Shown here: one piece after another, positions 5,528 to 61,414 of the stretch
Layout of the letters: each line of letters opens with the position of its first letter
Numbering within the stretch: position 1 is the first letter of the stretch
Origin: Candidatus Omnitrophota bacterium
Lineage (GTDB): Bacteria > Omnitrophota > Gorgyraeia > 2-01-FULL-45-10
Direction of reading: 5' to 3'
Assembly (NCBI GenBank): GCA_028699255.1
Contig: JAQVUX010000001.1
Coordinates: 228,733-292,732 of the forward strand
DNA length: 64,000 bases
Program-made: the position numbers and the translations under genes
Notes under the pieces: model-generated
Told to the model about the DNA's origin: nothing
The model's input: the letters and a program-made list of their open reading frames with translations, nothing else
The model's database searches: none

Positions 5528-5758
5528 CTATGAGATCCTCGCCAAAAGCTGGCCCACTTTTACTTCATCACCTTCATTAACAAGTATCTCGTTTATTGTC
5601 CCGGAAACCGGAGACGGCAGATTGAAGCTCGCCTTATCGGTAACAAGCTCCACCAGGTCTTCCCCTTCCTTAATCGCATCGCCTACCGAACGGTGCCAGT
5701 AAGAAACGCTCGCTTTATCCACACCTTCCGCTATAGACGGCAAATTCACATCGGTCAT
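5528..5758 (-). CDS. Standalone lipoyl/biotinyl-attachment domain protein (76 aa)
   Basis: EGEDLVELVTDKASFNLPSPVSGTI has the canonical lipoyl domain with the TDKA lysine. Immediately upstream of lipA. Confidence 0.7.
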   Translation of the reverse strand: MTDVNLPSIAEGVDKASVSYWHRSVGDAIKEGEDLVELVTDKASFNLPSPVSGTINEILVNEGDEVKVGQLLARIS

Positions 5759-11202: not shown

Positions 11203-11240
11203 CAACCTACGCGGTTGCATTTATGCAACCGCGTAGGTTG
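11203..11240. repeat. 38-bp perfect palindrome (18-bp arms) in the leuC-like/leuD-like intergenic spacer
   Basis: CAACCTACGCGGTTGCAT tt ATGCAACCGCGTAGGTTG followed by TTTGGTTTTT on the plus strand. Seen directly. Confidence 0.6.
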
Positions 11241-55413: not shown

Positions 55414-55487
55414 GCGGGAGTAGCACAATGGTAGTGCAGTAGCCTTCCAAGCTACCTACGTGGGTTCGATTCCCATCTCCCGCTCCA
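55414..55487 (+). tRNA. tRNA-Gly (anticodon TCC)
   Basis: GCGGGAGTAGCACAATGGTAGTGCAGTAGCCTTCCAAGCTACCTACGTGGGTTCGATTCCCATCTCCCGCTCCA. Confidence 0.85.
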
Positions 55488-55609
55488 TCTAACTTCAACA
55501 AGTCAGGGAATCGAAGCCGAATTTTCCGCCGAGCGATTAGCGAGGAAAAGCGCTATGCGCGACAGGAAATTCGGCTGGCCCGAAGCGAGGCCTATGGCCG
55601 AGCGAAGGG

Positions 55610-55629
55610 GATTCCCATCTCCCGCTCCA
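55610..55629 (+). repeat. 20-bp direct repeat of the tRNA-Gly 3' end (GATTCCCATCTCCCGCTCCA), 122 bp downstream of the tRNA
   Basis: Exact 20-mer match to 55468..55487. The intervening sequence is not tRNA-like. Confidence 0.6.
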
Positions 55630-55633
55630 TACT

Positions 55634-57775: not shown

Positions 57776-57795
57776 AGACAATTCTCCTATTTTTA

Positions 57796-57850
57796 GTAGG
57801 AGTCATCGGCCGTGTTAAGGCGGTTAAAGGCGAACTCCATCGCCCATGCT
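57796..57850 (-). promoter_or_regulatory. Fluoride riboswitch (crcB RNA motif) in the crcB leader
   Basis: Minus-sense GGGCGATGGAGTTCGCCTTTAACCGCCTTAACACGGCCGATGACTCCTAC matches the fluoride aptamer consensus (GGnGAUGGnGUUCGCC...AACCGCC...GAUGAnUCCUAC), directly upstream of crcB. Confidence 0.75.
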
Positions 57851-57866
57851 ATTAAAACCTGATATT

Positions 57867-58725: not shown

Positions 58726-58810
58726 CAGGTCTTTTTCAAAAACACCGGTTATGCTTCGCTTATCGCCTTAGTTCTCTTTTCAGGAATTACTTTATTGAAA
58801 AAGGAACGCC

Positions 58811-58850
58811 GCAGTTATCCACAAAGTAGTGCACACTTAAGGGTGCACTA
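58811..58850 (-). repeat. Hairpin element copy 1: conserved AGTTATCCACAAAGTAG (contains perfect DnaA-box TTATCCACA) + 11-bp-stem hairpin + CTACTT
   Basis: Plus-strand agttatccacaAAGTAGTGCACacttaaggGTGCACTACTTgc. Shares a 17-nt flank and the stem bases with 59904..59935, while the stem interior differs with compensatory changes. Confidence 0.55.
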
Positions 58851-58867
58851 CTTGCTTGCATGTTCGG

Positions 58868-58880
58868 TTGGTGGTGAGGG
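58868..58880 (-). repeat. 13-bp direct repeat of the tRNA-like 3' end at 63320..63332 (TTGGTGGTGAGGG; minus-sense CCCTCACCACCAA)
   Basis: Exact 13-mer occurring twice in the window, with a similar tgtt..g context at both sites. Chance expectation in 64 kb is about 0.002. Confidence 0.5.
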
Positions 58881-58905
58881 TTCGCCTCGAACTGAAAAGA
58901 TACTG

Positions 58906-59082
58906 TTATTTCAATGAAAAAGGCACATTAACATGCATTGCCACCTCTTCCTTCGCCGAGACTTTGCTTACTGGAAAATTATTTGCACAAAAATTAACGA
59001 ACTCGACATACTCGGCCATGGGAAGCCAACCGTTCTTCTCAGGAAATTTTCCGACCGGCAGCCTTAGTTCGTCTTTTCTCAT
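58906..59082 (-). CDS. Hypothetical 58-aa protein, translationally coupled to the upstream nucleotidyltransferase
   Basis: MRKDELRLPVGKFPEKNGWLPMAEYVEFVNFCANNFPVSKVSAKEEVAMHVNVPFSLK. ATG overlaps the nucleotidyltransferase stop as ATGA. No family recognised. Confidence 0.35.
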   Translation of the reverse strand: MRKDELRLPVGKFPEKNGWLPMAEYVEFVNFCANNFPVSKVSAKEEVAMHVNVPFSLK

Positions 59083-59633
59083 TTCTTAAATACTCCTAGA
59101 ATGTCATTGTAAATTTCTTTTGTTCCGAATTTCAGACAGATACCTTTAAATTCTTCGCCTTCAAAATCAATATTGTTCATCTTTATAAGCTCTATTATGT
59201 CGGGCAAATCTTTCAATAACCTGTTCTTTGCCCCGTGCTTTATAGCGTGAAGCTTGAGCGCAATTAAATGATTAAGGGATGGAACAACTAGCTCCATGCC
59301 CGCAATAGTTGTTTTCTGGCCTTCCCGCAATATCTTATCTCGCGTAGCCTCATCTACAATCATAAAGTCTATATCCACTGTATCTTTTGCGCTCGACATG
59401 CGCACGGCCACATTCGTAGCGAAATTTTCGGCGTATCCGGCTTCGCTTAGTATCTTTTCGATTTTTTTAAAATCATCTTTCGTCATCAAAAAATCAACAT
59501 CACGAGTACCGCGCGTAACCTTATAGAAATTTACCGCAAAACCACCTATAAGTATACATGGTACAGCCGTTTTTCTTGACGCCTCAGCAACAAGGTGAAA
59601 TACCTTTGAATAATCCATTGACATATTATACAA
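59079..59633 (-). CDS. Minimal nucleotidyltransferase, aminoglycoside 2''-adenylyltransferase (ANT(2'')/AadB)-like fold
   Basis: VPCILIGGFAVNFYKVTRGTRDVDFLM resembles the ANT(2'')-Ia segment PLWIGGGWAIDARLGRVTRKHDDIDLTF (GG...GRVTR...DxD). 184 aa versus 177 aa for AadB. Similarity is recalled from memory, not searched. Confidence 0.5.
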   Translation of the reverse strand: MYNMSMDYSKVFHLVAEASRKTAVPCILIGGFAVNFYKVTRGTRDVDFLMTKDDFKKIEKILSEAGYAENFATNVAVRMSSAKDTVDIDFMIVDEATRDKILREGQKTTIAGMELVVPSLNHLIALKLHAIKHGAKNRLLKDLPDIIELIKMNNIDFEGEEFKGICLKFGTKEIYNDILGVFKK

Positions 59634-59687
59634 GGAAAATTATAAAAACGGAAGGAGAATGATTATGCGGAACCGGAACGATTTTTT

Positions 59688-59888
59688 TTATGCTTTTTGA
59701 CGGAACTTAATAACGATATCCCTCGCGCCTTTGCGAATAGCACGCCTGCCTTCTGCTATGGTCTTGAGCAGCCACGGGTCACTCGACTCCTCCTCTATTT
59801 CAAGCTGCTCCGGCAGGGGCAGAAAGTCGGGTATTCTTACTAGCTTACCGATTGGCATATCATAATCGATTTTGCGCTTCGTTTTCAT
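59688..59888 (-). CDS. Hypothetical small protein (66 aa from the ATG; the ORF-track start at 59903 is a TTG inside the repeat element)
   Basis: MKTKRKIDYDMPIGKLVRIPDFLPLPEQLEIEE... Immediately downstream of hairpin element copy 2. Confidence 0.35.
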   Translation of the reverse strand: MKTKRKIDYDMPIGKLVRIPDFLPLPEQLEIEEESSDPWLLKTIAEGRRAIRKGARDIVIKFRQKA

Positions 59889-59903
59889 AAAAGTTATCCA
59901 CAA

Positions 59904-59935
59904 AGTAGCTGACGTTTAAAACGTCAGCTACTTAC
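59904..59935 (-). repeat. Hairpin element copy 2: AGTTATCCACAAAGTAG + 14-bp-stem hairpin + CTACTT (perfect DnaA-box TTATCCACA)
   Basis: Plus-strand agttatccacaAAGTAGCTGACGTTtaaaAACGTCAGCTACTTac. Lies between the nhaP2 stop and the small ORF start. Confidence 0.55.
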
Positions 59936-59941
59936 TTCACC

Positions 59942-61414
59942 CTATTCACCATCATTCTTTTTAAGCTGCGCCAGTGTTTTTTGAAAATCCGAAAAATCTG
60001 CAGCATTCGCAAGTACCAGCATAACATCGCCGCCTTCTATGGCCACGGATCCAGACGGTATTATAAATTTGTCATTTCTAGAAATAAGCATAATAAGACA
60101 TTTCTCTGGGACATTTAAATCGCTGATTCTCTTGCCTTCCGCCTGCGAATTATACGGCACAATAGCTTCCGTTAATTCCGCATCGATGCCTTCTGTTTTT
60201 TCAAATTCTATAGGATAATTCCTCCTATAGGCCACCGGCACATCCAGTTTCAATAATTTAGAAATAAACGGAATGGATGTTCCTTGAATAAATACTGACG
60301 CGATAACGACAAAGAATACTATATTAAAATAAACATCCGCCCGCGGAATACCCGCCATAAAAGGGAACGTCGCGAGGATAATCGGGACCGATCCTCTTAA
60401 GCCGACCCATCCGATCATAATTTTTTTGCGCATACTCATCTTAAATGGCAATAGACACAGCATTACGCTGACCGGACGGGCTACTACCATCAAGAGAAAT
60501 GTAAGTAATAGTCCCGCCCCTATCAATGGGACTATATGTGAAGGGAAAACGAGCAGTCCCAGTGTAACAAACATAGTGATTTGCATGAGCCAGGCCAAGC
60601 CGTCGTGAAATTTCATAATCATCTTTTTATTGGGAAATTCCGCATGACCCAACATTAGACCCGCTATATATACCGCGAGGAAACCGTTGCCCTTCAAAAA
60701 AACGGCAATCACATACGTTAAAATAACAAGAGAGATCATCAGCGCTAAATAGAGCCCTTCGTATTCCAATTTCAAACGGTTGATAAAAAATATGATAAAT
60801 CTTGCCGATAGATACCCTATAAGGGCGCCTACGCCCATATCGAGGGCAAATTTTGGGATGAGGAGAGCGATATTTGACCCATTTGCCGCAATAATGCCTA
60901 TAAATCCTATGGTCAAGAAAACAGCCATCGGGTCATTACTGCCGGATTCAAATTCGAGTAGAGGCTTAAGGGGGCTTCTTAGACTTATACGTTTGGATCT
61001 CAGTATACTGAACACAGCGGCGGCATCTGTTGAGGAAACTATAGAACCTAGAAGCATTCCTTCAAGAAAAGAAAACTTCAGAATATATACAGCAAAAAAC
61101 CCCGTTATGATAGCGGTCAACAATACTCCAACTGTGGATAGAATAACTCCCGGCAAGACAACAGGCTTAGTTTCCTTCCAGCTTGTGTCCAACCCGCCGG
61201 AAAAGATAATGAACATTAGGGCTATAACGCCTATGGATTTCGCTAATTGCGCGTTATCGAAATAAATACCACCGATACCTTCCGATCCGGCAAGCATACC
61301 GACCGCCAAGAATAGCAGCAAGGCAGGTATAGCAAATCTATCCGAGAGCTTGCTCGAGACAACGCTCACGAATATCAATACCGCAACCCATAATAATATA
61401 TATTCGATCTGCAT
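59942..61414 (-). CDS. nhaP2: K+/H+ (Na+/H+) antiporter, NhaP2/CPA1 family with C-terminal TrkA-C-like domain
   Basis: 490 aa with about 12 transmembrane helices. FESGSNDPMAVFLT motif. Cytoplasmic C-terminal regulatory domain. Confidence 0.8.
   Translation of the reverse strand: MQIEYILLWVAVLIFVSVVSSKLSDRFAIPALLLFLAVGMLAGSEGIGGIYFDNAQLAKSIGVIALMFIIFSGGLDTSWKETKPVVLPGVILSTVGVLLTAIITGFFAVYILKFSFLEGMLLGSIVSSTDAAAVFSILRSKRISLRSPLKPLLEFESGSNDPMAVFLTIGFIGIIAANGSNIALLIPKFALDMGVGALIGYLSARFIIFFINRLKLEYEGLYLALMISLVILTYVIAVFLKGNGFLAVYIAGLMLGHAEFPNKKMIMKFHDGLAWLMQITMFVTLGLLVFPSHIVPLIGAGLLLTFLLMVVARPVSVMLCLLPFKMSMRKKIMIGWVGLRGSVPIILATFPFMAGIPRADVYFNIVFFVVIASVFIQGTSIPFISKLLKLDVPVAYRRNYPIEFEKTEGIDAELTEAIVPYNSQAEGKRISDLNVPEKCLIMLISRNDKFIIPSGSVAIEGGDVMLVLANAADFSDFQKTLAQLKKNDGE

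Follow-up and report, generated by a model that had tools for sequence, protein, structure and literature searches.

In Proteobacteria, repetitive extragenic palindromic (REP) elements of the GTAG type are short extragenic palindromes with GTAG at the foot of the hairpin, and together with a REP-associated tyrosine transposase (RAYT) they form REPtrons (PMC2817692, PMC3733652, PMC3337134). The abstract of one of these papers speaks of eight phyla and names Proteobacteria, Cyanobacteria and Planctomycetes; Omnitrophota is not among the phyla named there (PMC3733652). Another small system is MenAT1 of Mycobacterium tuberculosis, in which MenT1 (Rv0078A), a tRNA 3'-end nucleotidyltransferase toxin, is neutralised by the 68-aa antitoxin MenA1 (Rv0078B) (8AN4/8AN5; PMC10435456). 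Here, we analysed a stretch of 64,000 nucleotides of a Candidatus Omnitrophota bacterium (contig JAQVUX010000001.1, positions 228,733 to 292,732; hereafter the window), in which two hairpin repeats, referred to as copies A and B, stand in direct orientation around approximately 1.1 kb of DNA containing a nucleotidyltransferase gene and two small open reading frames (ORFs) of 66 and 58 aa. We consider it probable that both hairpins are GTAG-type REP elements of Candidatus Omnitrophota which flank a mobile MenT-like gene pair.

All genes of the locus, the three ORFs included, are encoded on the minus strand, and in gene orientation each element consists of a hairpin followed by the tail TGTGGATAACT. 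Copy A (59892..59933, minus) combines a hairpin at 59933-59903 with the tail at 59902-59892, and copy B (58813..58853, minus) a hairpin at 58853-58824 with the tail at 58823-58813. In the window, there are exactly two copies of the 17-mer AGTTATCCACAAAGTAG, both on the plus strand (58813-58829 and 59892-59908); allowing up to three mismatches gave no third copy (chance expectation 0.11), and two or more matches were reached in 0 of 100 shuffles. An earlier note, made from the sequence of the window alone, had recognised two copies in the same orientation with a common 17-mer, which holds, but its range for the second copy, 59904-59935, omits most of the shared 17-mer, the true start lying 12 nt earlier at 59892. 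Both palindromes have 15-nt arms, which are 93% complementary in copy B (58824-58853) and 100% complementary in copy A (59903-59933). In gene orientation, hairpin A reads AAGTAG-CTGACG-TTTTAAA-CGTCAG-CTACTT and hairpin B reads AAGTAG-TGCACC-CTTAAG-TGTGCA-CTACTT with one mismatch, confirming that the two stem interiors differ with full compensation. Folding of 71-nt segments centred on each copy gave -20.9 to -22.6 kcal/mol, with z-scores of -4.2/-8.3 for the segment containing the 59903 hairpin and -2.3/-2.4 for the segment containing the other one. A covariance model built from the family copies described below and run without filters matched copy A (59887-59945) with 61.9 bits and copy B (58808-58865) with 58.4 bits, and no further copy was found in the 64-kb window, where the next best match scored 10 bits. 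Rfam holds no family for these hairpins and returned only a weak match to HrrF (24 bits vs a gathering score of 77). The same arrangement of the locus was found again in an independent assembly (contig L001; contigs other than that of the window are given by L numbers).

Metagenome and genome collections were scanned with the pattern AAGTAG-N(6-30)-CTACTTTGTGGATAA, for which a handful of chance matches is expected. This returned 62 metagenome and 28 genome loci, and approximately 20 of the 28 genome records are titled Candidatus Omnitrophota. The SpoU-type methyltransferase encoded next to copy B in the window is identical to a protein of an Omnitrophica MAG. After removal of duplicates, 59 unique copies with an 18-nt centre were aligned, resulting in the consensus (AGTTATCCAC)A-AAGTAG-NNNANN-YTTAAR-NNTNNN-CTACTT-TGTGGATAACT. 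The inner stem varies, its two arms always changing together, whereas the outer stem is fixed, as is the single-stranded tail. In the 30-nt stem-loop with its 13 pairs, 98.7% of the stem cells are paired across the 59 copies; all seven variable stem pairs change on both sides (129 cells), a result reached by 0 of 500 shuffles, and slid controls of the stem alignment were only 34-55% paired. The invariance of AAGTAG/CTACTT in this set is by construction, both being part of the search pattern, and independent support comes from the RAYT-flanking copies of L101 and L106, in which GTAG/CTAC is kept. Conservation also extends beyond the pattern, namely to the CT following GGATAA (47 and 54 of the 59 copies) and to the ACA ahead of AAGTAG. 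In addition, a complete second box on the left side, which is likewise absent from the pattern, is present in about one third of the copies and gives rise to a 52-nt perfect palindrome. The proposal that the repeat is under selection for structure is thus borne out by the compensated stems.

The inner hexamers belong to a limited set recurring across contigs (GGGAGG, GGGACC, CCGACG, CTGACG, GTCACC, GGCACC, CGCACC and a few others), which reads as the pattern of proliferating subfamilies. Ordinary genes start or end within 0-25 nt of the copies, which occur in either orientation, with truA, pstS/pstC, RNase PH, rdgB, hypC/hypD, nrdR, smpB and dTDP-sugar genes among the neighbours. In copies with one box, the box is directed toward a downstream gene start in 14 cases and toward an upstream gene end in 13, and thus shows no orientation bias; six copies lie between divergent genes, and no U-tract follows the stem. 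The lack of orientation bias and the copies between divergent genes speak against a role as promoter, operator or simple terminator. Regarding copy number, two copies are present in the 64-kb window, at least three strong copies besides weaker matches in the 14.7-kb contig L010, and exact matches on at least four contigs of one metagenome-assembled genome (MAG). Two further peculiarities of the family were observed. In L058, the two-sided REPs at 406-467 and 2470-2531 stand approximately 2 kb from each other, and one is the reverse complement of the other, a relation that extends into the flank for at least 16 nt at either side; this could represent an invertible segment or an assembly fold-back. 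In L048 (972), L041 (438-482), L013 and L055, the 5' foot of the REP carries one to three extra GTA/TAG triplets (e.g. AAGTAGTAGTAGTAGGGG...), as if slippage had occurred at the GTAG tag.

The repeat is further linked to a transposase gene. The product of L045:836-1327 scores 119 bits against the NCBIfam model NF047646 "REP-associated tyrosine transposase" (REP_Tyr_transpos, cutoff 80) and 17 bits against the IS200 model (TnpA, cutoff 55). This RAYT gene is framed by inverted repeats in the layout ...GTAGGGGACGTTTAAACGTCCCCTAC-AATGTGGATAACTTT-ATG ... TAA-GTTATCCACA-AAGTAGCCGACGTTTAAACGTCGGCTACTT, and two more copies lie upstream of it. In L041, whose RAYT is 65% identical, the hairpin layout is present on the 3' side, the 5' side being cut by the contig end. 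Three additional loci were obtained by protein search and hence independently of the DNA pattern. Among these, L101 and L106 display the layout hairpin-box-ATG...stop-box-hairpin, while L105 carries variant repeat copies on both sides of the RAYT gene in direct orientation. In all RAYT-flanking copies of these three contigs, TGTGGATAA is kept, even where the hairpin linker has changed. The hairpin variant CTGACG/CCGACG found 3' of the L101 RAYT gene also occurs upstream of the modules in L002 and L078 that are homologous to the one in the window, and in L011 a divergent Y1 protein with a helix-turn-helix domain is encoded 100 nt from a REP copy. A search with the L045 RAYT protein returned 85 homologues; with one exception, the named ones belong to Omnitrophota, and some sources already label them RayT. 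In L045, L101, L105 and L106, the RAYT gene is located immediately downstream of comM (Mg-chelatase-like). This common position in four contigs fits a single-copy, vertically inherited gene rather than a roaming insertion sequence, and RAYTs are regarded as domesticated single-copy genes in the part of the literature drawn on here (PMC5581495).

Judged from these sequence comparisons, the repeat has the testable defining features of GTAG-type REPs, including the REPtron. As in the proteobacterial families, the copies are dispersed singly, in clusters and as inverted doublets, and discrete sequence variants recur across genomes. The RAYT would recognise single-stranded DNA at the hairpin foot and the tail, and both would owe their conservation to this recognition. 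The recombination-like site proposed in the earlier note therefore takes the form of a substrate-like site for a DNA-processing enzyme, as the REP is tied to a Y1 (HUH) transposase. Our literature searches found no paper describing these repeats in Omnitrophota.

The central gene between the two REPs encodes the nucleotidyltransferase (59618-59079, minus). It had been read as a 184-aa protein starting at TTG 59633, but the start at 59618 (MDYSK..., 179 aa) is likelier, as in all homologues. The exact-sequence look-up of the 184-aa ORF gave no match, nor did that of the neighbouring exchanger, and for SpoU only the identical contig L001 was returned. The protein matches four Pfam families above threshold: NTP_transf_5 (2.8e-12; 47.2 bits, cutoff 31.2), AbiEii (PF08843, 5.4e-8; 33.5 bits, cutoff 22.5), Aminoglyc_resit (PF10706, 1.5e-7; 32.1 bits, cutoff 21) and DUF2204 (1.6e-7); PADLOC likewise reported AbiEii (1e-6). 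The Aminoglyc_resit match covers residues 13-95 only, corresponding to profile positions 3-89 of 149, and NCBIfam, its resistance models included, gave no match for the protein. A total of 582 homologues of approximately 179 aa were found, the named ones mostly from Omnitrophota. When the AlphaFold2 model (predicted local distance difference test, pLDDT, of 90.5) was compared with the PDB using Foldseek, MenT1 and MenAT1 (8an4/8an5) ranked at the top with E values of 1.4e-8 to 2.3e-7, template-modelling (TM) scores of 0.57-0.65 and 20-22% identity, followed by ANT(2'')-Ia (TM approximately 0.6, 14-15% identity) and then by TM1012, LnuA and MenT3. A profile search against PDB sequences also placed MenT1 first (1.3e-4). 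The residues T40, D42, D44, K124, D139 and D142 are invariant in 18 homologues, and in the profile alignment to 8an4, T40, D42, D44, K124 and D139/D142 pair with T39, D41, D43, K137 and D152 of MenT1, respectively, which are its catalytic residues (PMC10435456).

By sequence and by predicted fold, MenT1 is thus placed as a closer relative of the enzyme than ANT(2''). Both MenT1 and the protein of the window are DUF1814/AbiEii-type nucleotidyltransferases of approximately 180-190 aa with the same two-lobed fold, all equivalents of the catalytic residues are conserved, and each has a very small partner protein (68 aa there, 58 aa here). They differ in that identity is only 20-22%, that the best Pfam match here is NTP_transf_5 instead of AbiEii, and that the partner lies downstream with an overlapping start and is unrelated in sequence. 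ANT(2'')-Ia/AadB (4WQK, 5CFU) is of the same size class and shares the pol-beta nucleotidyltransferase fold and the GG...DxD core, and its family profile PF10706 exceeds the threshold over the N-terminal 83 residues. On the other hand, the identity to ANT(2'') is 15%, the profile leaves the C-terminal domain unmatched, the gene has an obligate small partner in a toxin-antitoxin (TA)-like, island-type context, and the hosts are uncultivated groundwater and sediment bacteria. Accordingly, of the claims made for this gene before, the minimal pol-beta-type nucleotidyltransferase stands, with the PF10706 threshold passed and the ANT(2'') fold shared, while the AadB-type resistance gene is not supported, as only the N-terminal core is matched, NCBIfam is silent and MenT1 is closer; among the proposed readings of the module, the TA-like one is the best. 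The protein is best described as a putative toxin of the MenT/AbiEii-like minimal nucleotidyltransferase group (NTP_transf_5/DUF2204/AbiEii) with a predicted intact catalytic site, and by analogy with MenT1 it would add nucleotides to tRNA 3' ends.

The module was found in five lineages, i.e., the window, L002, L003, L005 and L078, and in all five the 58-aa ORF follows directly downstream of the nucleotidyltransferase gene, usually overlapping it, with 44-78% identity in tblastn. In the window (59082-58906, minus), the ATGA overlap between its start and the stop codon of the nucleotidyltransferase gene is confirmed at 59079-59082. This family is small, with only 13 representatives in 1.8 billion clusters. 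The ORF has no match in Pfam, PADLOC or NCBIfam and no similarity to known antitoxins, a profile search against the PDB gave chance-level matches only, and the single-sequence structure model (pLDDT 55.6) is unusable. The 58-aa protein is thus the conserved, translationally coupled partner of the enzyme and a putative antitoxin, which would block the nucleotidyltransferase as in a toxin-antitoxin pair. An extended -10-like element, TGTATAAT (59625..59632, minus), lies 6 nt upstream of the nucleotidyltransferase ATG; TATAAT is found 6-7 nt ahead of the ATGGATTA start in 5/5 lineages, and no Shine-Dalgarno sequence is present between the -10-like element and the ATG. Since TATAAT is conserved without a Shine-Dalgarno sequence, the two conserved genes probably have their own, possibly leaderless, transcript with the start at 59618, which suggests leaderless translation in these Omnitrophota.

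The 66-aa ORF (59888-59688, minus) behaves differently. It has no match in Pfam, NCBIfam, PADLOC or the PDB and shows 62-71% identity over 31-32 aa to two segments of L056, one of which lies inside a brnA-like ORF following brnT. Its N-terminal part of approximately 35 aa resembles the N-terminus of a BrnA-like antitoxin, while the C-terminal half is unrelated to BrnA and is shared only as DNA remnants with L002. In L003 the ORF is missing, in L078 only a truncated form is left, and in L002 it has been replaced or is chimeric. As far as its sequence relationships indicate, this chimeric ORF is probably a gene in decay or with an accessory role, and not a conserved partner. The three-gene unit suggested in the earlier note hence narrows to a gene pair in which the 58-aa ORF is conserved in relatives and the 66-aa ORF is not. 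A brnA-like gene is affected in L002 (3633-3850), where a REP lies within it at the cost of approximately the first 30 codons; the leftover ORF reads LPPPKDLVMPEH... and gives a sub-threshold BrnA_antitoxin score of 22.9 bits (cutoff 26.1). REP copies can therefore interrupt accessory-module genes.

Comparison of the homologous modules showed that they occur in unrelated genomic contexts, in keeping with the mobility that had been proposed, and often near a tRNA-Tyr/tRNA-Gly region. By these comparisons, the module belongs to the flexible gene pool, and the nucleotidyltransferase gene pair is probably mobile. Read along the minus strand, copy A begins 8 nt past the stop codon of the Na+/H+ exchanger gene with a TrkA_C domain (61414-59942) and ends 3 nt ahead of the ATG of the 66-aa ORF (59888). 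On the other side, the 58-aa ORF ends 52 nt short of hairpin B, and between them lies a separate 18-nt repeat, GGCGAACCCTCACCACCA (58886-58869, minus), which resembles the 3' end of tRNA-Tyr. Copy B follows 15 nt past this 18-mer, and 87 nt separate the end of its tail from the start (58725) of the SpoU-type methyltransferase gene (58725-57910, minus). The two elements therefore do not bracket the ORFs exactly, as had been claimed, the 3' side being inexact.

The 18-20-nt repeat, GGCGAAC(C/T)CTCACCACCA(AC), is found in the window (58869-58886, minus), in three copies in L078, in L056 (10505-10522) and in L049 (1577-1594), and in several Omnitrophota it stands where small TA-like modules end on their 3' side. 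In L078, three direct copies separate such modules from one another. In L056, the copy ends a 2.85-kb island starting at tRNA-Tyr and repeats 12 nt of the 3' end of that tRNA; the island contains two REPs, a gene of unknown function and brnT with a brnA-like ORF, and is followed by tRNA-Gly and moxR. The module of L003 also adjoins tRNA-Gly and moxR, which in the window are located 3.4 kb off. The strain contig L049 is 97% identical to the window over 1.6 kb and shares the exchanger gene, REP A and the module, and its homology stops exactly after ...CACCACCA of the 18-mer (58869). By these alignments, the real 3' border of the module is the 18-mer, which is likely an att remnant. Another repeat was noticed at the tRNA-Gly(tcc) gene of the window (55414-55487, plus), where the last approximately 22 nt (GATTCCCATCTCCCGCTCCAT) recur as a direct repeat about 145 nt further on (55608-55632, plus), suggestive of a duplication of the att type that an integrated element has left behind. 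Relative to the response-regulator and moxR genes, this tRNA-Gly is encoded on the other strand, while in L003 and L056 it runs in their direction.

At the left border, pairwise alignments of the window with L078 and with L002 show that homology begins at the left REP. Among the homologous modules, a REP is present in L002 and L078, on the 5' side only, and none in L003 and L005; moreover, the segment of the window comprising the 18-mer and REP B (58893-58813) aligns with an 18-mer and REP upstream of the L078 module. Thus, the reading of the two hairpins as the two ends of one unit is not supported, as homologues carry the 5' hairpin only and the 3' border is the tRNA-Tyr-like 18-mer. In the simplest reading of these alignments, the unit appears to be REP-genes-18-mer, with 18-mer-REP as the junction between units; copy B would then be part of the junction that follows the unit, outside the unit proper. 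Among the closest SpoU relatives, at 73-75% identity, synteny is not conserved, so they provide no module-free locus for comparison. A 160-aa ORF upstream of the L078 module was considered as a serine recombinase C-terminus and dropped, having no Pfam match.

Several observations weigh against this interpretation as REP elements flanking a mobile MenT-like pair. GTAG is paired inside the stem, whereas the tag of the literature is unpaired (PMC3733652), and the 11-nt conserved tail TGTGGATAACT is an addition equal to a DnaA box and longer than the usual 4-nt tag. Other differences from the known families are the host phylum, Omnitrophota, and a loop that is itself palindromic (TTTAAA or CTTAAG). 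Classic REPs exceed 100 copies per genome, while the density here is apparently low, approximately one per 30-50 kb in sequence unselected by the pattern, i.e., tens rather than hundreds per genome, and tblastn found no RAYT gene in the 64-kb window. For the gene pair, the functions as toxin and antitoxin are putative, the partner gene follows that of the enzyme here while menA1 lies upstream of menT1, and the putative toxin enzyme may instead have a small-molecule substrate. At the borders, the breakpoint in L049 could be an assembly join at the repeated 18-mer. Finally, copies A and B are close to each other: the probability of a random intergenic pair 300-1200 nt apart is approximately 0.03, or approximately 0.09 when counted by gaps, so that the pairing of the two REPs in the window is mildly non-random. 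Together with the REP at the left homology border in three lineages, this closeness means that the association between REP and module may be causal, not incidental.

It is for this mildly non-random pairing that we retain an alternative, unlikely as we judge it, in which the REPs bound a cassette: the hairpins would act as IS200/IS605-type ends, and a RAYT acting in trans would move the 1.1-kb cargo as single-stranded DNA or, in a variant, a circular REP-module-18-mer unit would recombine into a resident REP. The ends of IS200/IS605 elements such as IS608 indeed resemble the repeats here, with subterminal hairpins read on one strand by a Y1 HUH enzyme, about 10 nt conserved between the hairpin foot and the presumed cleavage site, and two ends in direct orientation. 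Copies A and B share such an orientation and the identical 17-nt tail, and at RAYT loci the inner stems of the two ends can differ, so the two copies could be used together. The left homology border at the REP in the window, L002 and L078 and the 18-mer-REP junction, which the window module has at its 3' side and the L078 module at its 5' side, would also be expected of such a cassette. However, the unit itself contains no transposase, the enzyme associated with the repeats is a RAYT and not TnpA(IS200), and the same two ends were not found around the module elsewhere, no other locus having a REP on both sides of it. In addition, L049 diverges at the 18-mer and not at REP B, most REP copies flank single housekeeping genes with no sign of cargo, and RAYTs are regarded as domesticated single-copy genes (PMC5581495).

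The other alternative concerns the box within the tail. TTATCCACA is an exact match to the DnaA-box consensus, and occurs in the window at 58815 and 59894, within copies B and A, and a third time at 5715, with no adjoining hairpin, in a stretch that reads like coding sequence. The elements could accordingly be host terminators or mRNA stabilisers whose perfect DnaA boxes recruit or titrate DnaA, an explanation that we find improbable. In its favour, no part of the element is better conserved than the nonamer, which holds also for the pattern-independent RAYT-flanking copies, the hairpins begin 0-25 nt past stop codons, and roles in termination and mRNA stabilisation are hypothesised for REPs in the part of the literature drawn on here (PMC3733652). 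The missing U-tract and the six copies between divergent genes speak against a terminator, and a promoter/terminator scan gave nothing above shuffles, copy A not being called a terminator. As for DnaA, the nonamer always keeps one register relative to the REP hairpin, at RAYT genes as elsewhere, and the lone other occurrence in the window has no hairpin. The perfect DnaA box seen in the earlier note is thus real as a consensus match and is not supported as an independent functional DnaA site, being a fixed part of the REP flank. Because it is kept in register around RAYT genes, TTATCCACA is best read as the conserved REP tail, presumably the RAYT recognition or cleavage region, and its identity with the DnaA consensus needs no further explanation, although DnaA may bind there as well. 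A secondary host function would be compatible with the REP explanation rather than a rival to it.

An integron cassette, with the repeats as attC-type sites and the nucleotidyltransferase as an AadB-like resistance cassette gene, is very improbable. The conserved outer parts with a variable but compensated inner dyad do recall attC, and the Aminoglyc_resit match above threshold and the ANT(2'')-Ia fold (TM approximately 0.6) recall the cassette gene. The attC core-site consensus is RYYYAAC ... GTTRRRY, facing the centre; here, the flanks are AGTTATCC ... GGATAACT, in which GTTATCC/GGATAAC misfit GTTRRRY/RYYYAAC and GTT/AAC face outward. Furthermore, the stems are perfect or nearly perfect palindromes with neither extrahelical bases nor a conserved bulge, many copies have a box on one side only, and copies lie beside housekeeping genes and around RAYT genes. 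Only two sites are present in 64 kb, among transporter, methyltransferase and similar genes, and the enzyme itself has no NCBIfam match and 15% identity to ANT(2''). In the window, tblastn with a single integrase query, which is a weak test, gave no tyrosine recombinase/integrase homologue, and no recombinase domain was found among the 15 neighbouring products scanned. The attC reading of the earlier note is therefore not supported. Likewise, readings of the box as a promoter and of the repeats as dif/Xer or parS-like sites were rejected on account of the 18-nt variable palindromic centres, the one-sided copies and the lack of gene-orientation bias.

Two other features of the window were recorded that are separate from the REPs and the module. 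A full-length fluoride riboswitch (57790-57853, minus; Rfam RF01734, 59.9 bits, gathering score 34) lies directly upstream of a crcB gene (57781-57386). At 11203-11240, an unrelated 18-bp perfect palindrome, CAACCTACGCGGTTGCAT-TT-ATGCAACCGCGTAGGTTG, with a T-rich tail is terminator-like.

Combined, the REP elements and the MenT-like gene pair are new instances of elements whose kinds were already known, here in a phylum from which neither had been described, and not a new type of system. It is a long shot that the REPs and the RAYT mark, and perhaps create, the junctions of small modules in an HUH cassette system, the copies, each with one or two perfect DnaA boxes, serving also as a dispersed DnaA sink; if true, a single-strand HUH transposase would take the place that the integrase has in integron cassettes. 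Explaining the compensated hairpin with its DnaA box as a REP guards against the annotation of replication or integron signals in Omnitrophota MAGs, and a consensus and covariance model of the REP family, along with its RAYT, become available for a phylum known from metagenomes alone. The compact MenT-like nucleotidyltransferase family, with approximately 580 homologues, and its new 58-aa partner constitute a candidate toxin-antitoxin system. Lastly, the REPs at module borders in three genomes offer a modest lead on how small modules may move in these reduced genomes.

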